The position numbers and the translations under genes are program-made. The notes beneath the pieces were generated by a model, which saw nothing but the letters and a program-made list of their open reading frames with translations, did no database searches and had not been told where the DNA came from. From Candidatus Bathyarchaeota archaeon (GTDB lineage Archaea; Thermoproteota; Bathyarchaeia; TCS64), in the NCBI GenBank assembly GCA_043826455.1, contig JBDRQD010000048.1, positions 128,001 to 192,000 on the forward strand: a stretch of 64,000 nucleotides of DNA, in the 5' to 3' direction. Numbering within the stretch: the stretch's first letter is position 1; each line of letters starts with the position of its first letter. Shown one piece after another: positions 1,718 through 17,146 of the stretch.

Positions 1718-2761
1718 TTATCCCAGAACGTAGCTGAATCTGGGGACGTTTTCTATGCCGCCTTCGGTGCGGAGGTCGGTGGTTTCATCGATGTCTTCGT
1801 CTTCGGTCATGGCTTCCAGGAGCTCGAAGTAGGGGTTCATGGTGTAGACTCCTGTTTTTCTCCAGGTCATCCACTCGTTGCTGAGGACGCCGTGGACGCT
1901 GGCCCAGCCTTCCGGGTGGAGCTCGTAGTAGAGCTGGCGGATGTCTTTGCGGCCTTCTTCTCGTAGGGTCTCCATGATCATGCGTCTGGCCTGGAACACG
2001 TTTATGTGTAGCTGTGGGACGTTGCGGTCCTGGTCCATGGGGTGCGTCTCCACGGCTGTGCGGGTGAGGCGTATTACGCTGTTCTTGGGTGGCTGGTATA
2101 CTCGGTCCATGTAGACGGCCATGTCGCGGAGGCCTCGGCGGCTGCTGACGAACATGGCCTCGTTCTCGCCTAGGGCGAGGTAGCAGGGCTGGTGCCAGTT
2201 GCAGATGGTTATTGTTTCGGGTTCGTCGGTGTGGATGGCTGCCAGGAGGAAGAAGCCTTCCAGCTTGGGTGCTATGGCTTGGAAGGCCTGGACCATGTTT
2301 TTACCGGTGGCGAGGGCGTCGCCTAGCATGTGGACGGCTACCTCGCTGTCGGTGATGTCGTCCACCTTCCCGCTGTGGCTCTTGAACTTGTGGGTCTTCT
2401 CCAGCTCCTTCCAGAGGTCCCGGTAGTTGGTGATGGTGCCGTTGTGCATCAGGGCGAGTTTGCCGTCGTCGCTGGTGAAGGGGTGGGCGTTCTCGTCCAG
2501 GTTGTAGTCGGGGTTGTCCCGGGCGTTGTCGCTGTACCTGCTGTGGGCGATGGCGCAGGTGCCCTTAACCTTGGTTATGTTGGGCTTGGCCTTCATGACG
2601 TGGGCGACGGGGCCGGCGCCCTTGACCACTGTGATTTTGCCTCCGTTGACGGCGGCGATGCCTGTGGCGTGTCCGCCGTAGAGGGCCTCCTGGTACTCCA
2701 GGGCGTCCAGGAGTAGGGGGGCGACGGGGCGTCTGCCCGTGTAGGCTGCTAGCTGGCACAT
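1718..2761 (-). CDS. Class II (Ntn) glutamine amidotransferase-like protein with unknown C-terminal domain
   Basis: N-terminal MC nucleophile, IAHSRY, NAHPF, HNGTITN, TDSEV; no SIS domain. Confidence 0.8.
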   Translation of the reverse strand: MCQLAAYTGRRPVAPLLLDALEYQEALYGGHATGIAAVNGGKITVVKGAGPVAHVMKAKPNITKVKGTCAIAHSRYSDNARDNPDYNLDENAHPFTSDDGKLALMHNGTITNYRDLWKELEKTHKFKSHSGKVDDITDSEVAVHMLGDALATGKNMVQAFQAIAPKLEGFFLLAAIHTDEPETITICNWHQPCYLALGENEAMFVSSRRGLRDMAVYMDRVYQPPKNSVIRLTRTAVETHPMDQDRNVPQLHINVFQARRMIMETLREEGRKDIRQLYYELHPEGWASVHGVLSNEWMTWRKTGVYTMNPYFELLEAMTEDEDIDETTDLRTEGGIENVPRFSYVLG

Positions 2762-3652: not shown

Positions 3653-4612
3653 TTAACCCATAATAATTTGGCTTAGCTTGTCTGCGTCGATGCTTCCACC
3701 TGTGAGAACGCAGACGGTTCTACCTCTTTCCTCTTTGGGGGTCGATAGCGCCGCTGCGAGGCTTATGGCTCCTGCTCCTTCGGCGACCAGCTTGTTCTCA
3801 AGGGCGAGGAACCGGATGGCCTTCTTTATCTCCTCCTCTGAGACCAGCACCACGTCGTCCAGTGTCTCCCTCACTAATTTCAGCATGTCCTCAGTGACAG
3901 GGTCGTTGATAGCGTCTGCGATGGTGTCTCTTGTCTCATGAGGGACAACCCGGTTCTGCCTCAGGCTCTCATAGAACCATGGAGAGAGCTCAGCGTTGAC
4001 TCCGATGACGCGTACGTTGGGGTTCAACGCTTTGGCTGCGAGGGCTATGCCGGAGGACACGAAGCCTACTCCCAGGGGAACGTAGATTGTCTCGGTTTCG
4101 GGTGCGTCCTCCATCACCTCGAGGCCGATGGTCCCGTGGCCGTCCAGTAGACGGAACTCGGCTAAGGGGTGGAGAAAACAGTAGTCGCTGGGCAGGTTGT
4201 CGAGGTACTCGAATAGCTCTTTCATGGACATCAATATGATCTCCATCCCGTACTTTCTGCAGGACTCGATCTTTGACCTGGGTGTGTGGTCCGGCATTAT
4301 TGCCCGTGAGGGTACGCCGTAGAGGTTGGCCGTGTATCCAAGTCCTTGGGACATGTTTCCTGCGCTCATGGTCGACAGTCCTCTCCTCCTTTCCTTTGCT
4401 GGCAGTTGAGATGCCCAGTTGTAGACTCCTCTGATCTTGTAGCTGCCTACGGGTTGCAGCATCTCGGGTTTAAGGAGTATCCCTGTGTCCTCCTCCCTGT
4501 ATCGTCTCAGCGGTATGAGGGGGGTGTGTAGTGCGACTCCTTTGATGCGCTCTGCCGCTTTTCTGAAATCTTTCAGGGTGGGTCTGTGAGAACTGGGAGC
4601 TGGATTGACCAT
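3653..4612 (-). CDS. PLP-dependent threonine/serine dehydratase family (fold type II)
   Basis: LKPEMLQPVGSYKIRG, SAGN, GHGTIGLE, EGAGA, TGGSID. Confidence 0.88.
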   Translation of the reverse strand: MVNPAPSSHRPTLKDFRKAAERIKGVALHTPLIPLRRYREEDTGILLKPEMLQPVGSYKIRGVYNWASQLPAKERRRGLSTMSAGNMSQGLGYTANLYGVPSRAIMPDHTPRSKIESCRKYGMEIILMSMKELFEYLDNLPSDYCFLHPLAEFRLLDGHGTIGLEVMEDAPETETIYVPLGVGFVSSGIALAAKALNPNVRVIGVNAELSPWFYESLRQNRVVPHETRDTIADAINDPVTEDMLKLVRETLDDVVLVSEEEIKKAIRFLALENKLVAEGAGAISLAAALSTPKEERGRTVCVLTGGSIDADKLSQIIMG

Positions 4613-5737: not shown

Positions 5738-6769
5738 CTAGAGGCCCCACAGGACCCTGGGGACGGTGACGCCTCCCTCCGTCCTGTGCTTGACACTGCG
5801 CCTGATCCTGCCCCAACGGGCAAGCTGCTCCAGGGGCTCGAAGAGGTCGTTGGCGTCGCCGTAGCCCAGCCTTACCAGCGTCCTCCAGGCGTCCTGTTCG
5901 ACGCCGTAGGCTTCGCCGTAGCCTTTTCTGAGGAGGGGGATGAGGAGGTCGTAGCTGTCCAGCTCGCCCTTCTCCTCTAGTAGCCTCTTGACGTGGCTCT
6001 CGAAGATGGCGATGTCTAGGGTGAGGTCGGGGAAGCTTCTCCCGGCGTCCAGCTTGGTTATCTCTGCGTCTCCGGGGGTCAGCTTTATGAGGCTGTTGCT
6101 GGGGGCCCTGAAGACGTTGAACGCGTCTCTGAGGTGGCTGAAGCCGACCCTGCTGCTGGCGAACATGGACTCCCCGTCCCCGACTCCCAGGTAGCAGGGC
6201 TGGTTCCAGTTGGCTATGTAGACGGCGTTGGGCTCGCTGCTGGTCACGGCCCCCAGGAGGACCATGCCGGTGAGGCTGTTAGCTGTTGCGCGGAGCGCCT
6301 CCGCGAAGGCGGCGTCCTCCTTCACCTTGTCGCTGAGCATGTGGACCGCGACCTCGCTGTCGGTGATGTAGTTCAGCTCCTCCACCAGGCTCTCGAAGAC
6401 GTGACTCTTCTCCAGCCTCCTCCAGTGCTCCTCGAAGTTGCTGATTACTCCGTTGTGCATCAGCACAGCGGACCCGTCCTCGGTGAGCCAGGGGTGGGCG
6501 TTCTGAGCCAGGTTGCAGCGGCTGTCCTTGAGGGCGGCGGCGCTGTGCCTGCTGTGGGCTATGCCCGTGGACCCCTTCAGTGAAGCTATCTCTGTCTTCT
6601 TGACCACCTCGTCCCCGGGGCCGTTGTCCTTGATCAAACGTATCTTTCGGCGGTGGATGGTGGCTAGGTCGGTGGCGTGGGCCCCCAGGTACCCTTCCTG
6701 CAGTCGAAGGGACTCCAGGAGGATGGGGGCGGCGTCTCTGCTTCCTACGTAGGCTGCGAGCTGGCACAT
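5738..6769 (-). CDS. Class II glutamine amidotransferase-like protein, paralog of 1718-2761
   Basis: MCQLAAY, IAHSRH, NAHPW, HNGVISN, TDSEVAVHML; shared C-terminal RTEGG...VPR. Confidence 0.8.
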   Translation of the reverse strand: MCQLAAYVGSRDAAPILLESLRLQEGYLGAHATDLATIHRRKIRLIKDNGPGDEVVKKTEIASLKGSTGIAHSRHSAAALKDSRCNLAQNAHPWLTEDGSAVLMHNGVISNFEEHWRRLEKSHVFESLVEELNYITDSEVAVHMLSDKVKEDAAFAEALRATANSLTGMVLLGAVTSSEPNAVYIANWNQPCYLGVGDGESMFASSRVGFSHLRDAFNVFRAPSNSLIKLTPGDAEITKLDAGRSFPDLTLDIAIFESHVKRLLEEKGELDSYDLLIPLLRKGYGEAYGVEQDAWRTLVRLGYGDANDLFEPLEQLARWGRIRRSVKHRTEGGVTVPRVLWGL

Positions 6770-6832: not shown

Positions 6833-7022
6833 TATCCGCTTAACGATCTTGGGTGCCCCCCGGTCGCCGGGGGTCAGCTTTCTCAGGGTACACGAGTATT
6901 TCACCGACCAACCACCCAACACAGTCGTTTAAAGAGACGCATATAAGTACACACATAGTAAACAGTTATGGCTACATAGGAATGATTATATCCACATACC
7001 ACACTCATATCTACTGATAGAA

Positions 7023-7298
7023 ATGGTTAAGACGTTAAAAGATAAACCCGCCAACTTCATCCCCTTTGTACGCAAAACAGGGAGAAAGCTCAGAGATGCC
7101 ATCATAATGTTCATTGACACCAAAGAATCCACCCTGGTAATAGAGAAAGACGAGATATCTATGTTCAAAGGCAAAACATACGATAACAAGGTATCAGTAT
7201 GCATCGGCTCAATCAAAAGGATACTCAGAAAGAGACAGAATGAATTCATAATAGGCACAAACCACGACAAGACCGAGATATACATAGTAAGAATTTAG
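7023..7298 (+). CDS. Hypothetical basic protein in low-GC segment
   Basis: 91-aa ORF with A-rich composition unlike its neighbours. Confidence 0.45.
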   Translation: MVKTLKDKPANFIPFVRKTGRKLRDAIIMFIDTKESTLVIEKDEISMFKGKTYDNKVSVCIGSIKRILRKRQNEFIIGTNHDKTEIYIVRI

Positions 7299-7519
7299 CC
7301 ACAATCCATCTCTTTTTAAGCACATAATACGCGCAGATGCGTAACCCCAAGTGGTTTACGTGACCTTTAGTACCTGTTTCTAGCCTATTCTAGGCATAAT
7401 AGGTTAATCTATACAGGGGCTCGATGATGTCTCTGAGCAATGCTGTGTATCTGCTAGGAACCTCAATTGGGACCGGCTTTGGCACTGGACGATGATAAAA
7501 GGGCGGCGGGCCCTCTGGC

Positions 7520-8017
7520 TTACTCCAGGGTGATCCAGCCCTTCTCTATGGCGGTGATGCCGGTGCGGGCCGCCTCTATTATGCCTATGTGCTTGACCTC
7601 CCTCATGAACTCGGTGATCTCGTTCACGGAGCCGGTGACCTCGGCTATTATGGTGTCCGGCTTTATGTCCAGTATCTGGCCCTTGTAGCGGTTGATGGTG
7701 GCCAGAGCCTCCTCCTGGGCCATGGGGTCAGCGGTGCTCAGCTTCACCAGGGCCAGGTCCCGCTGGACGGTGCGCAGCGGGTCCAGGCGCTTCACCTTGA
7801 TGACGTCCACCATCTTCTCTATCTGCTCGACGAGCTTGGTGATCTCGTGGGCGTCTCCGCGGACCGTGATGGTGATCCGGGTGGTGTCCACGTCCTCGCC
7901 GGCGATGGCGGTGATGCTGTGGATGTTGAAGCCCTTGCGCCTGAAGTTGTTGCTGATGTTGAAGAGCACGCCGGGCTTGTTCTCCACCATGAGGCTGATA
8001 ACGTTTAGGGGCGTCAC
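7520..8017 (-). CDS. ilvN: Acetolactate synthase regulatory subunit
   Basis: ACT domain ENKPGVL...FRRKGFNIHSI; RDLALVK; EAARTG. Confidence 0.93.
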   Translation of the reverse strand: MTPLNVISLMVENKPGVLFNISNNFRRKGFNIHSITAIAGEDVDTTRITITVRGDAHEITKLVEQIEKMVDVIKVKRLDPLRTVQRDLALVKLSTADPMAQEEALATINRYKGQILDIKPDTIIAEVTGSVNEITEFMREVKHIGIIEAARTGITAIEKGWITLE

Positions 8018-9702
8018 GGTAGATCATCCGTCAATATGTCCTTTAAACCCATCCCTGGGGGGATCATGGGGTACACGTTCTCCTCGGGGTCTATGGGCAC
8101 CTCTATCACCGTGGTGTAGTCCGCCGCAGCGGCTCTCCTCAGCTCCGTGTTCAGCTCCTTCATGGTCTCCGTCTTGACGCCGTGGGCTCCGTAGGTCTTG
8201 ACAAGCTCCGTGAAGTCCAAGGTGTAATCCCTTTTCACGGCCGAGTATCTGCCCCCCATGAAGAGGCGCTGCCACTGGGCCACCATGCCCAGCATCCTGT
8301 TGTTGAGCACCACCACCACTATGGGCAGGTCCTCGTCCACGGCTACCGCCAGGTTGTTCTCCGTCATGGCGAAGCTGCCGTCCCCGCTTATGTTCAGCAC
8401 CACCCTGTCGGGTCTGGCCGCCTTGGCGCCTATGGCTGCGGGGGTCCCCCACCCCATGGTGCCCAGGCCGCCGGAGGTGAGGAAGGTGCCGGGCTCGTAG
8501 ACGTCGTAGTGGAGGGCCGCCAGCATCTGGTGCTGGCCCACGTCGGTGGTCACCAAGGCGTCCCCGGGGAGGGCGCGTCTGATGGCCTTGATGACTGCGG
8601 GACCCGTTATCCCGTTGGCGTACTCCGGCACCTCGTAGCTGCGCCTGAACTCCTCTATCTTGTGGGCCCACTCGCCGTTGCCTCCCTCGGCCCTCCTCAG
8701 GGCCCTGATCTGTTCCACCAGGCCCCTGATGCAGGGCTTGGCGTCTCCCCAGACCTTGATGACGCTCTCCACGTTCTTGTCTATCTCGCTGCGGTCAATG
8801 TCCATGTGGATGATCCTGGCGCCTGGGGCGAACCCGGCCAGGGCCCCGGTGGTCCTGTCACTGAACCTGCTGCCCACCACCAGGAGCACGTCCGCGTCGG
8901 GCACTAGGTAGTTGGCCTCCGCCCTGCCGTGCATCCCCAGGAGCCCCAGGCTCAGGGGGTGGTTGCTGGGTATGGAGCCCTTGCCCATGAGGCTGGTGGC
9001 CGTGGGCGCCATGAGCAGCTCAGCCAGCTCGGTCAGCTCCCTGCCTGCCCCGGCGCTCACCACCCCACCGCCCGCCACTATGACGGGCTGCCTGGCCTCA
9101 GAGAGTACCTTGGCCGCCCACTCCAGCTCCGTGGGGTCCGGCTGTAACCTGGGCCTGTAGCCGGGGAAACTCACCTCGGCGTCGAAGTCCATGTCCGCGG
9201 ACTCTGTGGTGACGTTCTTGGGCAAGTCCACCAGCACGGCCCCCTTCCTGCCCGTGTTAGCCACATACATGGCCGCCTTCACGGCCCAGGGTATGCGCCC
9301 GGGCTCCCTCACCTGGTGGTTCCACTTGGTGATGCTGGCGGTGACGCCGATGATGTCCACCTCCTGGAAGGCGTCGGTGCCCACCATGCTCATGCTCACC
9401 TGGCCTGTGAAGGCCACCAGGGGGCTGCTGTCCAGCTGGGCCGTGGCGACGCCTGTGACTATGTTGGTGGCGCCGGGTCCGCTGGTCACCTGGACCACGC
9501 CGGGCCGCCCGGAGGCCCTGGCGTAGCCGTCGGCCATGTGGGCGCTGCCCTGCTCGTGGACGCCCGGCACGTACCTCATGTCGGTGTTCAGCATCTCGTC
9601 GCATATGGGTATCAGGGCCGCGCCCGTGATACCGAATACGTGTGTAACTCCCTCCTTCTCCAGGGCCCTGACGTAGGCCCTGGCTCCTGTCATCTCAGTC
9701 AT
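8014..9702 (-). CDS. ilvB: Acetolactate synthase large subunit (ThDP/FAD)
   Basis: HEQGSAHMADGYAR, TSGPGATN, GMHG, SGGLGTMG, GDGSF...NN. Confidence 0.95.
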   Translation of the reverse strand: MTEMTGARAYVRALEKEGVTHVFGITGAALIPICDEMLNTDMRYVPGVHEQGSAHMADGYARASGRPGVVQVTSGPGATNIVTGVATAQLDSSPLVAFTGQVSMSMVGTDAFQEVDIIGVTASITKWNHQVREPGRIPWAVKAAMYVANTGRKGAVLVDLPKNVTTESADMDFDAEVSFPGYRPRLQPDPTELEWAAKVLSEARQPVIVAGGGVVSAGAGRELTELAELLMAPTATSLMGKGSIPSNHPLSLGLLGMHGRAEANYLVPDADVLLVVGSRFSDRTTGALAGFAPGARIIHMDIDRSEIDKNVESVIKVWGDAKPCIRGLVEQIRALRRAEGGNGEWAHKIEEFRRSYEVPEYANGITGPAVIKAIRRALPGDALVTTDVGQHQMLAALHYDVYEPGTFLTSGGLGTMGWGTPAAIGAKAARPDRVVLNISGDGSFAMTENNLAVAVDEDLPIVVVVLNNRMLGMVAQWQRLFMGGRYSAVKRDYTLDFTELVKTYGAHGVKTETMKELNTELRRAAAADYTTVIEVPIDPEENVYPMIPPGMGLKDILTDDLP

Positions 9703-9788
9703 GTTTGGCTGCCTCCCACTCCCGCCTCACCTTGAAGGGCTGGGCGGGCACGTTAGTAGAAGTTTTACGTTTGGTTTCTCTGCGGGGT

Positions 9789-9812
9789 CTACCTAAGAAT
9801 ACGATACCCCAT
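9789..9812 (-). CDS. Putative leader peptide uORF2 (MGYRILR)
   Basis: ATG directly follows the TGA of uORF1; GGAGG inside uORF1; mirrored in the second ilvB leader. Confidence 0.55.
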   Translation of the reverse strand: MGYRILR

Positions 9813-9857
9813 TCAGCTCTGCCCCTCCGCTGGGGGCCCGACAAAACGATACCCCAT
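9813..9857 (-). CDS. Putative leader peptide uORF1 (MGYRFVGPPAEGQS)
   Basis: GAGGAG upstream; TATA-like TTTTTATT at 9904-9911; mirrored in the second ilvB leader. Confidence 0.55.
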   Translation of the reverse strand: MGYRFVGPPAEGQS

Positions 9858-9943
9858 TTTCAGTCTCCTCGTACCGTTCGTAATGTTGGATGAAGGCTCA
9901 CCTAATAAAAAGGTTGTCAGTAACGCTTGTTGCATACGAGCGG

Positions 9944-10420
9944 CTAGGGCGGGAATAGGGGCACAAACTTGTAGGTATCGCTGAAGTCTATGCGGTTCTC
10001 CCCCAGCATGGTCTCTATCCTCATGGCGCCCTTGAACTCCCACTCCCAGACCCGGCTCGTCCGGGCAGCCTGTATGTGGGTGCCGCTGGTGGGTGGCAGC
10101 GTCAAGGTTCTCTCCACTATCTGGGGCGTCCCCCCCACCACGGTTATTGGGCCGGCTATGGTGTCCGTGGTCAGGGCCACGCCGTTGAGCATGACGCTGT
10201 AGGGCGTCTCCAGGACGGTGACGCGGACGCCCCGCGGGTTGGTGTACTTGAAGCTGAGGTACATTGTGGAGTCGGTGGGGGTGAACCCCATGATCTGGAC
10301 CTCCACATCCGTGTACATGGCCGACTTCACGTAGCCCCAGTAGTCCAGGGCCACGGCCGCCACTACGATGAGCACCAGCCCGAGGGCTATGAAGGCGGGC
10401 AGTTTCTTGCGCTCAGTCAT
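9944..10420 (-). CDS. LEA_2/WHy-like membrane-anchored protein
   Basis: N-terminal TM helix followed by a beta-rich domain with YTNP. Confidence 0.55.
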   Translation of the reverse strand: MTERKKLPAFIALGLVLIVVAAVALDYWGYVKSAMYTDVEVQIMGFTPTDSTMYLSFKYTNPRGVRVTVLETPYSVMLNGVALTTDTIAGPITVVGGTPQIVERTLTLPPTSGTHIQAARTSRVWEWEFKGAMRIETMLGENRIDFSDTYKFVPLFPP

Positions 10421-10487
10421 CGATGAATGTGGGGGCTCATGGCGAATAAAAGTGTGGCTTGTTTCAAATCACGTGTTATTTCAAGCA

Positions 10488-11237
10488 CTAGCTGAGCTTC
10501 TTGAAAACATATATTGCCCATCCCTGTGCGTCTCGTCCTTCCTCCAAGTACGCGTTCTTATATCCCAGAATCTTTGAGAGAAGCTCCTCGTTGTCAGGGT
10601 CGTCGGGGTTCTCAGTCAAGTGTTGCTCAACTGCCAGCCACTGGAGGCTCTCATAGTGATCCCAGTCATCCTCGTCGCTCATGATGGTGTAAACACACCT
10701 CATACCCATGTCCTCACCAACCCGTATGTTCTCGAGGTGGCTTCCGCAGTCCTCTTTCTTCATCTTCTGGGACTCAAGATACTCGTCACTCGGCTCCCTC
10801 ATCCAGAAGGGTTCGCCGACGACAACCCAGCCACCGGGGGCAGTCATCTCTGAGAGCGTCTTTAAGGTCCCTCTGTGGCCGCCGTAGACCCAGCTCGCGC
10901 CGATGCAGCTAGCTAAACGGAACTTCTCACAGTTTCTAGGCTTATAGTCCGCTCCATCCATCTCCAAGAAATCCAGGTCCGCCTCAGGCACCCGTCCCTG
11001 TTTCTTTTCTCTACAGTAACGGATACAGAACGGTGACTTGTCTACGCCGACCCCTGATACGTCGTACAGCTCAGCGAGCCTGACGAGGAACTCACCCTTA
11101 CCGCACGCGATGTCTAGAACACGGTCCTTCTTCTTCAAGGGAAGTACATCGCATAGCCTGTAGAATTTCTCCCTATTCATGGGGTTGCAGACGAGGTGCT
11201 TCTTATGGGTGATGTCGAAGAACTTCCAGCGGTCCAT
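10488..11237 (-). CDS. Class I SAM-dependent methyltransferase
   Basis: VLDIACGKGE, GVD, CIGASW, PGG-VVVGEPFW. Confidence 0.88.
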   Translation of the reverse strand: MDRWKFFDITHKKHLVCNPMNREKFYRLCDVLPLKKKDRVLDIACGKGEFLVRLAELYDVSGVGVDKSPFCIRYCREKKQGRVPEADLDFLEMDGADYKPRNCEKFRLASCIGASWVYGGHRGTLKTLSEMTAPGGWVVVGEPFWMREPSDEYLESQKMKKEDCGSHLENIRVGEDMGMRCVYTIMSDEDDWDHYESLQWLAVEQHLTENPDDPDNEELLSKILGYKNAYLEEGRDAQGWAIYVFKKLS

Positions 11238-11345
11238 GCTTCATCAGCGAGGTCTATCGTTTAAAATAGTTACGTGAACACTGCGGGGGCACGTTAAACT
11301 ACGCTTTTGTACAACAAATAGGGAAATGAAGAGAATTGAGGGCGC

Positions 11346-12344
11346 CTACTTCTCCAATCCGCTCATCCTGCGGACCTGACGCCCGACCTTCTCGATCTCC
11401 AGGGCGTCGCACTCCGCCATGAGCTCCTCGAACTTCTTGGCCCCCGCCTTGCTCTCAGCGATCCAGGCCTTGGCGAAGCTGCCGTCACGGACCGCCTTCA
11501 GCGCCTCCCGCATGTTGGCCTCAACATGATCATCAACGATCACTGGGCCCACGGTCATGCCTCCCCACTTGGCGGTGTCGCTCACGGCCCGGTACATGCC
11601 TCCGATGCCGCTCTTGTATATGAGGTCCACTATGAGCTTCAGCTCGTTGCACACCTCGAAGTACGCCAGTTCAGGCGGGTACCCGGCCTCCGTAAGCACC
11701 TTGAAGCCGCGCCTGATGAGCTGGTCAACGCCTCCGCAGAGGACGGCCTGCTCGCCGAAGAGGTCCGACTCGGTCTCGTTCTTGTAGGTGGTCTCGATGA
11801 CGCCCGCCCGGCCGCTGCCCAGGGCCTTGGCTACGGCCAGGGCCTTCTTGAGGGCCTGGCCTGAGGCGTCCTGGTGGACCGCCACCAGTGCGGGGACCCC
11901 GAACCCGGCCTCGTACTGGCGCCTCATCTCGGGGCCTGGGCTCTTGGGGGCCACCATGATGACATCCACGTCCTTTGGCGGCTTAATCTCCCCGAAGTGG
12001 ATGTTGAACCCGTGGGCGAACTGGAGGGCCTTGCCCGGCGTCATGGCCAGGGCCACCTCCTCCTTGTAGACGCTAGGCTGCGCCATGTCCGGCATCAGCA
12101 TCAGCACCACGTCGCCCCTCTGGGCGGCCTCCAGGTGGGTCACGGGCTTGAACCCGTCCTCCTGGGCCCGCTTCCAGCTCTTCCCTCCGGGCCTGAGCCC
12201 CACCACTACGTTTACGCCGCTGTCCCTCATGTTGAGGGCCTGGGCTCTACCCTGGCTCCCGTAGCCTAGGACGGCCACGGTCTTTCCCTTCAAGACTGAC
12301 TCGTCTATGTCCTTGTCGTGGTAAACCTTCACCAATCTATTCAC
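11346..12344 (-). CDS. ilvC: Ketol-acid reductoisomerase
   Basis: [37 protein letters not shown]. Confidence 0.96.
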
Positions 12345-12830
12345 CTACAGTTTTAGCCGCCCCTTCTCCAGGGCGGTGACTCCCGTCCTCGACATCTCTA
12401 CGACGCCGACGCTCTTAACGTAATCCAGGAACTGGTCCAGCTCCTCGGGCGTCCCGCTCACCTCAGCCATGATGTTGTCCTCGTCTATGTCTAGGACCAG
12501 GCCGTGCTGGTTGTTGATGAGGCGCAGGGCGTCTTCCCGGGCCATGGGGTCCCTGGTACTCAGCTTCACCAGCAGCATCTCCCGCCGCACAATACGCAGC
12601 GGGTCCAGGCGCTTCACCTTCACCACCTCCACCATCTTGTCCAGCTGCTCCAGGAGGTTGTTCAGGGTCCTGGGGTCAGCCTCCACGGTGATGGTCATCC
12701 TGCTGTACCTGGAGTCCTCCAGGGCCCCCACGGTTATGCTGTCGATGTTGAAGCCCCGGCGCCTGAACAGGTTGCTCACGTTGAAGAGGACCCCCGGCTG
12801 GTTCTCCACCAGGAAGCTGACGGTGTGCAC
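12345..12830 (-). CDS. ilvN: Acetolactate synthase regulatory subunit
   Basis: ENQPGVL, FRRRGFNIDSITVG, EMSRTG. Confidence 0.93.
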   Translation of the reverse strand: MHTVSFLVENQPGVLFNVSNLFRRRGFNIDSITVGALEDSRYSRMTITVEADPRTLNNLLEQLDKMVEVVKVKRLDPLRIVRREMLLVKLSTRDPMAREDALRLINNQHGLVLDIDEDNIMAEVSGTPEELDQFLDYVKSVGVVEMSRTGVTALEKGRLKL

Positions 12831-14519
12831 CTAGTCGGCCTCCATGAGGGTGTCCTTCAGCCCCATCCCCGGGGGCACCATGGGCATCACGTTCTCCTCG
12901 GGGTCGATGGGCACGTCGATGACAGTGGGCACGTCGGCCTTCATGGCCCTCCGCACCGCGGCCCTGAACTCGTCGTAGGAGGCCACCCTGACGCCCTCGG
13001 CCCCGTAGGCGCCGGCCAGCTTAACGAAGTCCGGGTTGCCCTTCAGCTTCACCGCCGAGTACCTGCGGTTGTAGAAGAGGCGCTGCCACTGGGCCACCAT
13101 GCCCAGCACGTTGTTGTTCAGCACCACCACTATGACGGGGAGCTCCTCCTCCACCGCCGTTGCCAGCCCGTTCTCCGTCATGCCGAAGCTGCCGTCCCCG
13201 GCGATGTCCACCACCGGGACCCCCGGCTTGGCCGCCTTGGCCCCGATGGCTGCGGGGAAACCCCACCCCATGGTTCCTAGGCCGCCGCTGGTGAAGAAAG
13301 TTCGGGGCATGTACGCGTCGAAGTGGAGGGCCGCCCACATCTGGTTCTGGCCCACCTCCGTGGTGACTATGGCGTCCCTGGGCAGCTCCTGCCGCAGGGC
13401 CCTGATGACCTTGGGGGCCCGCAGGTAGGGGGGCCTCTCCTCGCCGTTTTCACCCATGTCGCACCTGAGCTCCCCTATGCGTTTGGTCCACTCGGGGCTG
13501 GTCTTGACCGTGCGAAGCACCTTCACCCTGTCCAGGAGGCCCCTGAGGGCCAGCCCGGCGTCGCCCACCACCTTGGTCAATGTCTCTACGTTCTTATCGA
13601 TCTCGCTGCGGTCGATGTCTATGTGGATGACCTTGGTGTTGGGGGCGAACTCGCTGATCTTGCCGGTGGTCCTGTCGCTGAAGCGTGACCCCACCACCAG
13701 GAGCACGTCGGACTTGGGGACCATCATGTTGGCCTCCATGGTGCCGTGCATCCCGCAAAGGCCCAAGCTCAGGGGATGGTCGCTGGGTATGGCCCCCTTG
13801 CCCATGAGGCTGGTGGCCGTGGGCGCCAGCAGGAACTCGGCCAGGGCCGTAAGCTCACCGCTGGCCCCAGCCGCTATGACGCCGCCCCCGGCCATGATGA
13901 TGGGCCTCTCGGCCTCAGCCAGTATCTTGGCGGCCCAGTCCAGCTCCTCGGGGCTGGGCGCCTTCGGCGGCGAGTAACCTCTGAAGCTCACCTCTTCCGG
14001 GAACACCATCTCAGCTGACTCGGTGGTGCAGTCCTTGGGTATGTCCACCAGGACGGCCCCCTTCCTGCCCGTGTCGGCCACGTAGAAGGCCCTCTTCACG
14101 GCCACAGGAATCTCCTCCGGGCTCGTCACCGGGATGTTGTACTTGGTGACGCTGGCCGAGACCCCTATTATGTCGCACTCCTGGAAAGCGTCGGTCCCTA
14201 TCACAGGCCTGTTCACCTGGCCCGTGAAGGCTACCACGGGGCTGCTGTCGATCTGAGCAGTGGCCAGGCCCGTGACTAGGTTAGTGGCACCGGGCCCGCT
14301 GGTGGCCATGCAGACTCCCACCTTGTTGAGGGCCCGTGCGTAGCCGTCGGCCATGTGGGCGGCGCCCTGCTCGTGGCGCGCCAGGATGAACCTCATGTCG
14401 CTGTTGAGCAGCTCGTCGCATATGGGGATCAGTGAGCCGCCGCTGATGCCGAAGATGTGCCTGGTGCCCTCCCGCTCCAGGGCCTTGACGAAGGCGCGGG
14501 CCCCGGTCATCTCAGTCAT
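12831..14519 (-). CDS. ilvB: Acetolactate synthase large subunit
   Basis: RHEQGAAHMADGYAR, TSGPGATN, GDGSF; second copy. Confidence 0.95.
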   Translation of the reverse strand: MTEMTGARAFVKALEREGTRHIFGISGGSLIPICDELLNSDMRFILARHEQGAAHMADGYARALNKVGVCMATSGPGATNLVTGLATAQIDSSPVVAFTGQVNRPVIGTDAFQECDIIGVSASVTKYNIPVTSPEEIPVAVKRAFYVADTGRKGAVLVDIPKDCTTESAEMVFPEEVSFRGYSPPKAPSPEELDWAAKILAEAERPIIMAGGGVIAAGASGELTALAEFLLAPTATSLMGKGAIPSDHPLSLGLCGMHGTMEANMMVPKSDVLLVVGSRFSDRTTGKISEFAPNTKVIHIDIDRSEIDKNVETLTKVVGDAGLALRGLLDRVKVLRTVKTSPEWTKRIGELRCDMGENGEERPPYLRAPKVIRALRQELPRDAIVTTEVGQNQMWAALHFDAYMPRTFFTSGGLGTMGWGFPAAIGAKAAKPGVPVVDIAGDGSFGMTENGLATAVEEELPVIVVVLNNNVLGMVAQWQRLFYNRRYSAVKLKGNPDFVKLAGAYGAEGVRVASYDEFRAAVRRAMKADVPTVIDVPIDPEENVMPMVPPGMGLKDTLMEAD

Positions 14520-14626
14520 GTTTGCTCAGCTCCCATGTTCTGCTGAGGCGGTACCCCGCCGGGGCTCCGCCGTGCTCTGGTTCTCGGACGCTAGAATACT
14601 TCTTAGCGTGGTTCAGTCGTTTGGGT

Positions 14627-14653
14627 CTACGATATAATAAAACGATACCCCAT
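14627..14653 (-). CDS. Putative leader peptide uORF2 (MGYRFIIS)
   Basis: TAA-ATG junction with uORF1; GGAGG inside uORF1. Confidence 0.55.
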   Translation of the reverse strand: MGYRFIIS

Positions 14654-14695
14654 TTAAGCCCCCTCCGCCCGGGGGTTGACAAAGCAATTCCCCAT
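14654..14695 (-). CDS. Putative leader peptide uORF1 (MGNCFVNPRAEGA)
   Basis: GGAG upstream; TATA-like TTTTTATT at 14742-14749. Confidence 0.55.
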   Translation of the reverse strand: MGNCFVNPRAEGA

Positions 14696-14966
14696 TTTTT
14701 GGTCTCCAGTTGGGTAGGTAACATGAAGGGCAGGGTGAGCCAATAAAAAGCTTACTACTGTACGTATTCATACACACAAGCATAATTCCTGTTCCGAATG
14801 TCTCTCAGGTGAGGCGGGTTCTGGATAAACGACTAAAGTTGGACAGGCCTCATTTTCCCCATATCTTCAACGAGTCCAGGCAGCATTCATGCGGCTCACC
14901 GGGGCCGCGGCTCTCCGCCACCTTAACAGTTATCTCCTCGGCCCCAACAAATACATGAGGAAAGAT

Positions 14967-16187
14967 ATGAGCTACTTCACGCACCTTGATTGCTCGGCCT
15001 GCGGCGAGGAGCACGACGCCACCATCGTCCAGACCGTGTGCAAGAAATGTGGAAAACCTCTCCTGGCCAGGTACGACCTGGGGAGAGTAGCGGAGGAGGT
15101 GACCAAACGGGAGCTGGTGGGCCGAGAGGCCACCATGTGGAGGTACTGGGAGATGCTCCCCGTCAAGAGCAGGAAGAACGTGGTGAGCCTCGGGGAGGGG
15201 TGGACCCCCCTGACGCCTGCGCCCCGCCTCGGAGAGGAGATCGGGCTACCCGACCTCTTGGTCAAGGACGAGGGCGTCATACCCACGGGCAGCTTCAAGG
15301 CCCGCGGCCTGGCCATGGCCGTGAGCAAAGCCAAGGAACTAGGCATAAAGCGCGTCGCCCTGCCTTCGGCCGGCAACGCCGCCGGCTCCATGGCCGCCTA
15401 CGGGGCCCGCGCCGGGATGGAGGTCTACGTCTTCATGCCCAAGGACGCCCCCAAGGTGAACATGGTGGAGAGCGAGATCGTCGGCGCCAAGGTGGTGCTG
15501 GTGGACGGCTTCATCACCGACGCCGGGAAGCTGGTGAAGGAGGGCATCAGCGAGATGGGCTGGTTCAACGTGACCACCCTGGGCGAGCCCTACAGGATCG
15601 AGGGCAAGAAGACCATGGGCCTGGAGGTGGCCGAGCAGCTCGACTGGCGTCTCCCCGACGTGATAGTGTACCCAACAGGCGGAGGCACGGGCATCATAGG
15701 CATGTGGAAGGTCTTCGACGAGCTGGAGGAGATGGGCTGGATAGGCAGCGAGCGGCCCAGGATGGTGAGCGTCCAGGCCGAGGGCTGCGCCCCCATAGTC
15801 AAGGCCTACAACGAGGGCAAGAAGGAGTCGGAGTACTTCCAGAACGCCAAGACTCTGGCCGCCGGCCTTAGGGTACCCAAGGCCCTGGGCGACTTCCTGA
15901 TACTTAGGGCGGCCAGGGAGAGCGGAGGCACCTGCATAGCCGTCAGCGACGAGGAGATCATGGACAGCGTGGGCCAGATCGGCCGGGCCGAGGGTCTCTT
16001 CGCGTGCCCCGAGGGTGCGGCCACCCTGGCGGCCCTGAAGAAGATGCTGGCGGACGGTCAGGTGGACAGGGACGAGAAGGTGGTCCTCTTCAACACGGGT
16101 TCGGGCCTCAAGTACGTGGATCTGTTCGAGGTGCACGCCTCCGTGGCGGACCCCAGGAAGCCCTTCAACTACCGGAGCCTACTCTGA
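14967..16187 (+). CDS. thrC: Threonine synthase
   Basis: N-terminal CxxC/CxxC, SLGEGWTPL, PTGSFKARG, SAGN, EGKKT, FNTGSGLK. Confidence 0.9.
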   Translation: MSYFTHLDCSACGEEHDATIVQTVCKKCGKPLLARYDLGRVAEEVTKRELVGREATMWRYWEMLPVKSRKNVVSLGEGWTPLTPAPRLGEEIGLPDLLVKDEGVIPTGSFKARGLAMAVSKAKELGIKRVALPSAGNAAGSMAAYGARAGMEVYVFMPKDAPKVNMVESEIVGAKVVLVDGFITDAGKLVKEGISEMGWFNVTTLGEPYRIEGKKTMGLEVAEQLDWRLPDVIVYPTGGGTGIIGMWKVFDELEEMGWIGSERPRMVSVQAEGCAPIVKAYNEGKKESEYFQNAKTLAAGLRVPKALGDFLILRAARESGGTCIAVSDEEIMDSVGQIGRAEGLFACPEGAATLAALKKMLADGQVDRDEKVVLFNTGSGLKYVDLFEVHASVADPRKPFNYRSLL

Positions 16188-16237
16188 CCCGTTCAGCAAC
16201 CTTTTTCCCCTACTACTCTTCTTTCACGCGATACATC

Positions 16238-17146
16238 TTGCCTGAAGCAGCGGCCTTCGCCCCAGGGCACCTCACGGGCCTATTCCAGATATGCGATCAG
16301 CCCGAGGACCCCCTGCTGAAGGGGGCAAGGGGATCAGGGGTCAGCCTCACCCGTGGCACCCACACCACCGTCACAGCTGAGGTCAGCCGCCGCCACAGCC
16401 ACACCGTGGCCATCAACGGGGAGACCATGGCCGACGCCGTGGTCAGCGAGAACGTCCTGGGCAAGTACCTGCCCCGACTCACCAGGCCCCACAGCATACG
16501 CATCAGCCACATCATCGACACGCCCCTCACCGCGGGCTTCGGTAGCAGCGGCGGCGGGGCCCTCAGCCTAAGCCTGGCCCTCAACCAGGCCCTGGGTACA
16601 GGCTTAACTAGGGTCCAGGCGGCCCAGATCGCCCACGTGGCTGAGATAGAGTGTGGCACCGGCCTGGGCAGCGTCTTCGCCGCCAACGTGGGCGGCTTCG
16701 GGGTTCTCCACAGGCCCGGGGCACCGGGCGTCGGCGCCAGCGTGTCCTACCCCAGGAGCCGTGAGCTGAGCGTCGTGTACCTCTACTATGGGCCCATCAA
16801 GACCAAGGAGGCCCTGGGGAACCCTGAGCTGCGGAGCAGGATCAACCAGATAGGTGGCGGGTACGTGGACGAGTTGCACAGGGGGCTCACCCCCGAGAGG
16901 TTCATGAGGCTCTCCAGGCAGTTCACGGAGCACGTAGGCCTCGTCACCCCCCGGCTGAGACGGGTATTCGACGCCATGGACTCCGAGGGCGTGGTCTTCA
17001 CCATGGCCATGTTCGGTGAGGTGGCCTTCACGGTTCAGCTCAGGGACGGGGCTGAGGATGTGGCTGACCTTGTGCGGGGGAAGGGCTTGGCTGAACCCGT
17101 GGTGTGTGGCATAGACACTCGTGGAGCAGTCCTGCTAGGCGACTAG
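16238..17146 (+). CDS. Pantoate kinase (GHMP family, archaeal CoA pathway)
   Basis: AFAPGHLTGLF, GARGSGVSL, GFGSSGGGAL, AHVAEI..GTGLGSV; TTG start inferred. Confidence 0.85.
   Translation: MPEAAAFAPGHLTGLFQICDQPEDPLLKGARGSGVSLTRGTHTTVTAEVSRRHSHTVAINGETMADAVVSENVLGKYLPRLTRPHSIRISHIIDTPLTAGFGSSGGGALSLSLALNQALGTGLTRVQAAQIAHVAEIECGTGLGSVFAANVGGFGVLHRPGAPGVGASVSYPRSRELSVVYLYYGPIKTKEALGNPELRSRINQIGGGYVDELHRGLTPERFMRLSRQFTEHVGLVTPRLRRVFDAMDSEGVVFTMAMFGEVAFTVQLRDGAEDVADLVRGKGLAEPVVCGIDTRGAVLLGD

Follow-up and report, generated by a model that had tools for sequence, protein, structure and literature searches.

Expression of the ilvB-ilvN-ilvC operon in this Bathyarchaeota genome is very probably controlled by a change of reading frame at a hungry codon in a short upstream ORF (uORF), made either by frameshifting or by a restart. 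We consider it likely, from the sequence, that the change is a programmed +1 ribosomal frameshift at that codon and that the leader acts as an amino-acid sensor. The decisive feature, absent from a first-pass annotation of the same DNA, is an open +1 frame combined with a sixth uORF codon specific to the gene downstream. The anatomy of the leader, the match between codon and gene, the frame relations, and the covariation of codons 5 and 6 are direct observations. All coordinates are those of the window, the whole 64,000-nucleotide stretch of contig JBDRQD010000048.1 that was analysed.

Anatomy of the two ilvB leaders

The ilvB-ilvN-ilvC leader and its genes lie on the minus strand, as does the leader of the other ilvB copy:

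14741-14749, minus: putative promoter with TATA-like box TTTTTATTG, from sequence; a similar T-run precedes homologous leaders
14722-14724, minus: additional ATG, in the +1 frame and close to the probable transcript start
14703-14707, minus: Shine-Dalgarno (SD) sequence of uORF1, GGAGA, from sequence
14654-14695, minus: uORF1, the valine unit, 13 codons, peptide MGNCFVNPRAEGA
14686-14694, minus: internal SD-like stretch of unit 1 (uORF nt 2-10), predicted partner of the 16S 3' end
14678-14683, minus: predicted shift site 1, TTT in the P site and GTC (Val) as sensing codon
14659-14675, minus: C5/G5 hairpin within uORF1, directly 3' of shift site 1
14627-14653, minus: uORF2, the isoleucine unit, 8 codons, MGYRFIIS, adjoining the uORF1 stop and sharing its frame
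14644-14652, minus: internal SD-like stretch of unit 2 (11-mer duplex -8.4 kcal/mol)
14636-14641, minus: predicted shift site 2, TTT in the P site and ATT (Ile) as sensing codon, then another Ile codon
14512-14682, minus: +1 'carrier' ORF, 56 codons from site 1 and 42 from site 2
14588-14609, minus: hairpin 1
14547-14571, minus: hairpin 2, whose 3' part (14550-14560) can instead pair with shift site 1
14525-14547, minus: hairpin 3, with the ilvB SD GGGAG (14530-14534) mostly within its loop
12831-14519, minus: ilvB, acetolactate synthase large subunit (TIGR00118, 713 bits, above cut-off)
12345-12830, minus: ilvN, acetolactate synthase small subunit (TIGR00119, above cut-off)
11346-12344, minus: ilvC, ketol-acid reductoisomerase (TIGR00465, above cut-off)
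9813-9857, minus: other ilvB leader, uORF1, a valine unit with TTT GTC at 9840-9845
9789-9812, minus: other ilvB leader, uORF2, a leucine unit with ATT CTT at 9795-9800
9695-9844, minus: other ilvB leader, +1 carrier ORF, which ends where the second ilvB (8014-9702) starts

The uORFs, the three hairpins, and a hairpin of the other leader (9721-9748) had been described in the first-pass annotation and are all in place. Its naming of the downstream genes as ilvB-ilvN-ilvC is confirmed by the TIGR models, and the close relatives of IlvB are Bathyarchaeia proteins. An independent DNA run covers 14362-14766 with two differences and no gaps, so the leader is not an assembly error. RNA contigs from relatives span leader and ilvB together, though as contigs they carry no information on start, strand, or level. 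The genes flanking both ilv clusters include two similar glutamine-amidotransferase-like genes (1718-2761, plus strand, and 5738-6769, minus strand), a threonine/serine dehydratase-like gene (3653-4612, minus strand), and a divergent threonine synthase (14889-16187, plus strand).

From both uORFs the +1 frame is open down to a stop at the ilvB start. This TGA (14514-14512) falls between the two candidate ilvB ATGs, following the first by 2 nt and preceding the second by 1 nt, and ilvB therefore has the geometry of translational coupling, with a stop within a few nucleotides of the downstream start. Coupling through overlapping stop and start codons is established in archaea (PMC10666635, PMC6728339) and needs overlaps or very short gaps (PMC10666635). 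The +1 frame was open by chance in 297 of 5,000 shuffles of this leader and in 372 of 5,000 shuffles of the other, and indels between homologous leaders are multiples of three. Among eighteen aligned homologous twin leaders, which had been chosen for Val, codon 6 is Val in all (18/18). The C5/G5 hairpin of uORF1 has 93 per cent of its cells paired, with a two-sided change at one pair. The anti-SD duplex upstream of uORF starts has a median of -6.6 kcal/mol, stronger than the -3.6 of genomic ORF starts. The ATG at 14724 could supply basal, unregulated coupling in this genome.

The uORFs share a start motif, ATG-GGG-NAT-HGY-NTT, with codon 6 next. This genome (G000) holds six copies, and a reversed control gave none. 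Two copies stand before each ilvB, one before valS, and one before a LeuA/CimA-family gene; there are no others. The valS copy (contig C39, 43633, minus strand) is a coupled Val unit, and the +1 frame ends at the gene start for valS and for both ilvB copies. The remaining copy (contig C57, 59702, minus strand) is an Ile unit before a cimA-like gene that heads a leuC-leuD-leuB-like run; this gene has no start codon of its own and is fused to the uORF in the +1 frame. Looser motif scans of the genome gave no extra targets above noise, and its hisS, leuS, argG, and second LeuA-family gene have ordinary starts. TTT makes up only 10 per cent of the Phe codons in this genome.

The sixth codon and its gene across archaea

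Loci were gathered in two ways, by pattern and by gene, and sites were located in them by a script that left codon 6 free; the search patterns fixed codon 5 as NTT, leaving only its first base free. Gene types were labelled in the scripts by short protein motifs, and examples were confirmed with NCBIfam. This yielded 165 distinct sites near six gene types, or 164 after one hisS row was dropped as a chance match. Codon 6 fits the gene in all of the kept rows (164/164), a count that overstates independence, as the genomes are related and the rows are not independent trials. The cimA-like gene is preceded by Ile in 35/35 rows, valS by Val in 13/13, hisS by His in 3/3, and trpE and trpS by Trp in 28/28 and 1/1; three of these Trp rows come from a pattern that fixes TGG. 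Before ilvB (84/84) codon 6 is Val in forty-two rows, Ile in twenty-three, and Leu in nineteen.

Within the genus searched, the motif is present in 24/24 genomes. Leaders of ilvB-ilvN-ilvC there pair Val with Ile, those of the other ilvB copy pair Val with Leu, and one genome (L180) has a triple Val-Leu-Ile unit. Two leaders (L126 and L127, from G023 and G006) carry a degenerate Val unit with the +1 frame closed after 15 codons and an intact Ile unit. A metagenome scan that allowed Val or Ile at codon 6 (n=127 sites) found Ile at all cimA-like genes (51/51) and Val at all valS genes (11/11), and it brought in one further target, a threonine-dehydratase-like gene preceded by a pair of Ile units. 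Thirty-nine of these sites were left unassigned by motif; by eye, they comprise four threonine-dehydratase-like genes, three valS-like genes, six cuts at contig ends, and twenty-six chance matches. Twin Ile units before the threonine-dehydratase-like gene are found on metagenome contigs L434, L478, L526, and L531.

Samples anchored on genes give a patchy distribution among gene types. The unit is present at 12/16 trpE loci (the rest being one plain start, two genes within an operon, and one cut locus) and, for trpS in another order of Thermoproteota, at 9/9 parsed of 10 loci. It is found at 5/27 parsed of 30 valS loci, all five in the order of the window's genome, and at 3/28 parsed of 30 hisS loci. 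Outside the class Bathyarchaeia, two genomes have a trpE unit. A phylum-wide search with the Trp pattern gave thirty loci: nine from Bathyarchaeia (five trpE and four chance) and twenty-one from other classes (two trpE, one trpS, and eighteen chance). In Halobacteriota (methanogens) the unit stands at 24/30 cimA-like loci and at 0/30 trpE loci. Genomes with it include Ca. Bathyarchaeum tardum (L034) and a cultured methanogen, Methanoculleus frigidifontis (L087). Ordinary starts were observed for five bacterial citramalate synthases, which lack the unit, and for the bacterial leuA genes sampled. For Methanosarcina mazei, the main text of a Ribo-seq paper (PMC11456600) does not mention frameshifting, and a uORF motif taken from locus L393, used in place of the M. 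mazei sequence, had no match in the supplements searched.

NCBIfam gives the cimA-like gene and the other LeuA-family paralogue the same name. In a quick tree, the cimA-like branch has the unit in 22/22 rows and the other Bathyarchaeia paralogue in none. The genes with an Ile unit form one branch in the quick tree, beside methanogen genes that lie upstream of ilvB. From this position and the gene order we infer that they encode CimA, citramalate synthase; loss of cimA causes isoleucine auxotrophy in a methanogen (PMC12131731).

Several leaders depart from the plain arrangement. In L059 (2777-3001) the ilvB leader is derived from the truncated 5' end of a cimA-like gene, and it has kept the Ile unit and a +1 frame that ends at the ilvB start. 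Eleven ilvB leaders of other Bathyarchaeia (L044-L046, L048, L050-L052, L054-L056, and L061) have two or three candidate sites (Leu, Val, Ile) placed serially in one uORF. Some of these sites are CGG-GTA or CAC/TAC-CTC. In most of the eleven the +1 frame runs out close to the ilvB start; in L050 it stops 28 nt short. Five valS leaders (L011, L013, L017, L019, and L021) have a conserved, TATA-like TTTTAA core inside the +1 ORF, which is perhaps a basal promoter. The hisS leader L233 has a single ACC-CAT site.

Classic leader peptides rich in Ile, Val, and Leu precede ilvB in other archaea, among them DHVE2, Archaeoglobaceae, and Thermoplasmata (L053:2789-2893, L104:2897-2974, L091:2889-2960, L058:2860-2946, L060:2850-2936, L057:517-603, L077:2908-2976). 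L053 resembles a bacterial attenuator in carrying, besides the peptide, a GC hairpin and its U-tract.

Reading frames, the proposed shift, and rival readings

The +1 frame is the gene itself in 64/64 cimA, trpE, and trpS rows. In the ilvB and valS rows it ends -15 to +20 nt from the gene start in 95/97 cases, vs 2/97 for the +2 frame, and these +1 ORFs are 21 to 76 codons long. No ATG, GTG, or TTG feeds the +1 frame in 98/122 first units, and among ilvB first units only 4/43, this leader included, have such a codon. Among cimA-like genes, no such codon precedes the DTTLRDG strand in 54/105 genes with a site vs 2/50 without.

Codon 5 varies with codon 6. A +1 slip would set the P-site tRNA against TT and whichever base opens the sensing codon. 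With a purine there, two pairs are retained by tRNA-Phe alone; with a pyrimidine, by the tRNA of any NTT codon. Where the sensing codon begins with a purine, the P codon is TTT at 112/113 sites, and where it begins with a pyrimidine, at 6/51. The sole exception among purine-first sites is in L126, a unit with its +1 frame also closed. Codons 5 and 6 covary as two-of-three re-pairing after the predicted slip requires. The rule is broken by CAC or TAC before CTC in seven ilvB leaders of other families and by ATT-ATT in 6/24 Halobacteriota sites. It also counts against frameshifting that re-pairing from TTT to TTG or TTA gives up the wobble pair, which makes for a weak slip. In three hisS leaders (L182, L184, and L248) two His sites follow each other, the second in the +1 frame, and the resulting +2 frame ends 0-2 nt before hisS, an arrangement hard to explain other than by two successive slips. 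In a fourth leader with paired His sites (L221) the stop lies about 25 nt short of the gene, which counts against the model.

Nucleotides 1-11 of the uORF are computed to pair with the 16S 3' end of this genome at a median of -8.4 kcal/mol; the corresponding values are -3.2 at ORF starts and -5.2 at those matched for the second codon. The gap from this SD-like stretch to the P site is 6 or 7 nt, depending on register, at the lower edge of the genome's 7-10 nt range for initiation. Internal SD pairing stimulates bacterial +1 shifts, where the gap is 3 nt (PMC5009743); the longer gap here speaks against frameshifting. Codons 2-4 vary mostly at third positions of the +1 frame, which reads G-I-V/A. 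This pattern is not required by a frameshift at codon 5, and we ascribe it to putative rRNA pairing.

These features suggest the following course of events. As long as Val and Ile are plentiful, ribosomes would read uORF1 and uORF2 to their stops and come off, so that ilvB receives little translation. Once valyl- or isoleucyl-tRNA runs low, ribosomes would halt while TTT occupies the P site and the A site stands empty on GTC or ATT, and a fraction of them would slip one base forward at 14678-14683 or 14636-14641; base pairing between nt 2-10 of the uORF and the 16S 3' end probably drives this slip. The shifted ribosome would translate the carrier ORF through the three hairpins to the stop at 14514-14512, terminate, and reinitiate on ilvB from the GGGAG in its loop; direct initiation on ilvB may be damped by the hairpins. 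Because units 1 and 2 feed one frame, the leader would act as a Val-OR-Ile gate over ilvB-ilvN-ilvC, and that of the other ilvB copy as a Val-OR-Leu gate. Translation of the uORFs, pausing, the slip, its stimulation by the SD-like stretch, reinitiation, and induction by starvation are all steps that we infer from sequence.

The first-pass annotation had read the hairpins as the switch. It was right that the output appears translational, that the twin uORFs have a role, and that no U-tract terminator is present (a scan of the minus strand found none); neither of the two outputs it proposed, SD sequestration by the hairpin series and factor-dependent termination, finds support here. The hairpins themselves are probably real. 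All three are in the minimum-energy fold, and in an alignment of nineteen leaders from the genus covariation is good for hairpin 1 (75 per cent of cells paired, two-sided change in 6/6 pairs) and only moderate for hairpins 2 (68 per cent, 5/9 pairs) and 3 (73 per cent, 2/5 pairs), as judged against shuffles, which ignore kinship. Hairpin 3 had been said to occlude the ilvB ribosome-binding site: it does pair the last G and the spacer, but the GGGA core (14534-14531) is looped and unpaired with probability 0.90-1.0. Folding with the uORFs masked as if covered by ribosomes, in four scenarios, kept GGGA mostly unpaired (0.56-1.0) and gave no alternative fold that opens the spacer. Since the SD core is predicted to be looped and masking does not change that, the hairpins are very unlikely to be the switch. 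A mechanism in which stalled uORF ribosomes refold the hairpins and free the ilvB ribosome-binding site, or steer factor-dependent termination, could draw on the existence and partial covariation of the hairpins and on the leader peptides rich in Ile, Val, and Leu before ilvB in other archaea. It could also draw on the conserved stretch at 14550-14560, which with its homologues is complementary to shift site 1 (94 per cent of cells paired); yet this long-range helix shows no two-sided change, and the structure is no better than shuffles (201/500). Neither leader folds better than its shuffles (z 0.22 here, -0.59 for the other), and an Rfam scan of 7000-17000 with E up to 10 found no match on either leader and four chance-level hits elsewhere. 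We regard this mechanism as very unlikely, the more so as it leaves unexplained both the conserved open +1 frame and the cimA, trpE, and trpS genes without a start of their own.

Three further readings accept the +1 frame and account for entry into it differently. A stalled ribosome might drop off with its short peptidyl-tRNA and restart in the +1 frame at a near-cognate AUH (nt 8-10) or at UUG, which gives the same sensing logic as the frameshift model without a frameshift. The AT at nt 8-9 is nearly invariant, a G at nt 10, which would give ATG, occurs in 0/163 rows (partly fixed by the pattern), the SD-like stretch lies at initiation distance from the post-slip codon, and at some trpE and trpS sites the +1 frame contains ATG or GTG; the G-I-V/A pattern of codons 2-4 also keeps the idea alive. 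Most post-slip codons, however, are TTA, TTC, or TTT, which are not starts, ATH is missing at 4/9 trpS sites and at the second His sites, and a restart predicts neither the covariation of codons 5 and 6 nor serial sites in successive frames, so that we think it improbable. The third-position pattern would also suit a shift at a fixed ratio, or an immediate one, that reads G-I-V-L and sets a low constitutive level with no sensor. The +1 peptide (GIVL, GIAL, or GIVF) is nevertheless alike before Val, Ile, Trp, and His genes, whereas codon 6 of the 0 frame is gene-specific; the first +1 codon is TGA in many units; and tandem Val, Ile, and Leu units, including the triple unit of L180, are sensible only as sensors. 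This too has very little likelihood. We also set aside a WGIVL peptide translated in the +1 frame from its beginning: in many units that frame opens with a stop codon, and it lacks gene specificity. Slippage of RNA polymerase at the T-run, giving +1 transcripts, is the least credible and in our view close to negligible: every site has a run of three to four Ts, but three to four Ts are few, and slippage there would not depend on which amino acid the following codon encodes. RNA contigs from relatives (14133-14656) also show no indel in the leader, a weak argument as minor variants are dropped and the site is near contig ends.

Known systems and implications

Leader-peptide attenuators of the ilvBL, trpL, leuL, and hisL type likewise sense charged pathway tRNA through translation of a uORF. 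They use runs of control codons and a terminator/antiterminator pair, whereas here each unit has one codon and the predicted output is a change of frame. The leader has one control codon at position 6 (with two Ile codons in uORF2) instead of a run, no U-tract terminator/antiterminator on the minus strand, and no refolding on masking. Nor is there SD sequestration of the ermC type, GGGA being predicted to be unpaired at 0.9-1.0 when free and 0.56-1.0 when masked. T-box riboswitches share the synthetase and biosynthesis targets and the single specifier codon per target; they differ in that the leaders here have no Rfam match and no large conserved stem I, and the codon lies inside a putatively translated uORF with strict frames.

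The nearest likeness is to the frameshift of RF2 (prfB), which has a short first ORF near the 5' end, an empty A site as signal, a +1 slip in the P site, an internal SD-like stimulator, and a product made from the shifted frame only (PMC5009743). RF2 uses CUU and a UGA stop within prfB with an SD gap of 3 nt. The archaeal units use NTT and a sense codon for the pathway amino acid, occur before many genes and in tandem, have a gap of 6-7 nt, and would work through translational coupling. A CUU-UGA site is thus missing from them; an internal SD-like sequence (as a predicted duplex) and a +1-frame product with possible P-site re-pairing (64/64 fused, 95/97 coupled) are present. The element would operate as RF2 frameshifting does, with a charged tRNA for ligand, and do the job of a leader-peptide attenuator, but it matches the definition of neither; it would be a new kind of control element, made of known ribosome behaviours. 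No published description was found in the open-licence full text of PMC and bioRxiv that was searched. Comparative-genomics work on cimA leaders with an isoleucine codon reportedly exists and bears on priority.

A slow A-site codon likewise triggers a +1 slip in hungry-codon frameshifting as described by Gallant and in yeast Ty1, ABP140, and EST3 (PMC5009743). Those shifts are a side effect of starvation or occur at a fixed ratio, whereas here the codon is matched to the gene; that 2016 review knows of no hungry-codon shifting that yields starvation-specific products. Frameshifts in the leader ORFs ermCL (with telithromycin) and pheL also let ribosomes enter the spacer and turn the downstream gene on (PMC5009743). 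In ermCL a drug sets off the shift, and that of pheL is regarded as incidental; the +1 ORF of the archaeal leaders, which closes at the gene start, appears to be under selection. The few cellular archaeal frameshifts on record include fucA1 and Mg-chelatase, and with those of haloviruses they are recoding too, but -1 or fixed-ratio and with no known control; the available part of a 2021 review lists no amino-acid-responsive case (PMC8211752).

RNA-level sensing of amino-acid supply in archaea is poorly known. We think it reasonably probable, if less so than the reading of this one leader, that archaea hold a widespread and undescribed element in which one hungry codon in a uORF of 6-25 codons programs a +1 frameshift. 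If so, the element would be retuned by a single codon change (Val, Ile, Leu, Trp, or His), units in the same frame would form OR gates (Val/Ile, Val/Leu, Val/Leu/Ile), and sites in successive frames (His-His) would act as a double-shift AND gate or an amplifier. Its range would take in Bathyarchaeia, other Thermoproteota, and methanogenic Halobacteriota, and many archaeal cimA, trpE, and trpS genes would then be annotated with the wrong start. It would supply the missing case of purposeful hungry-codon frameshifting, of which the 2016 review knew none (PMC5009743). It would also correct those gene starts and offer archaeal genetics a programmable amino-acid sensor of 20 nt.
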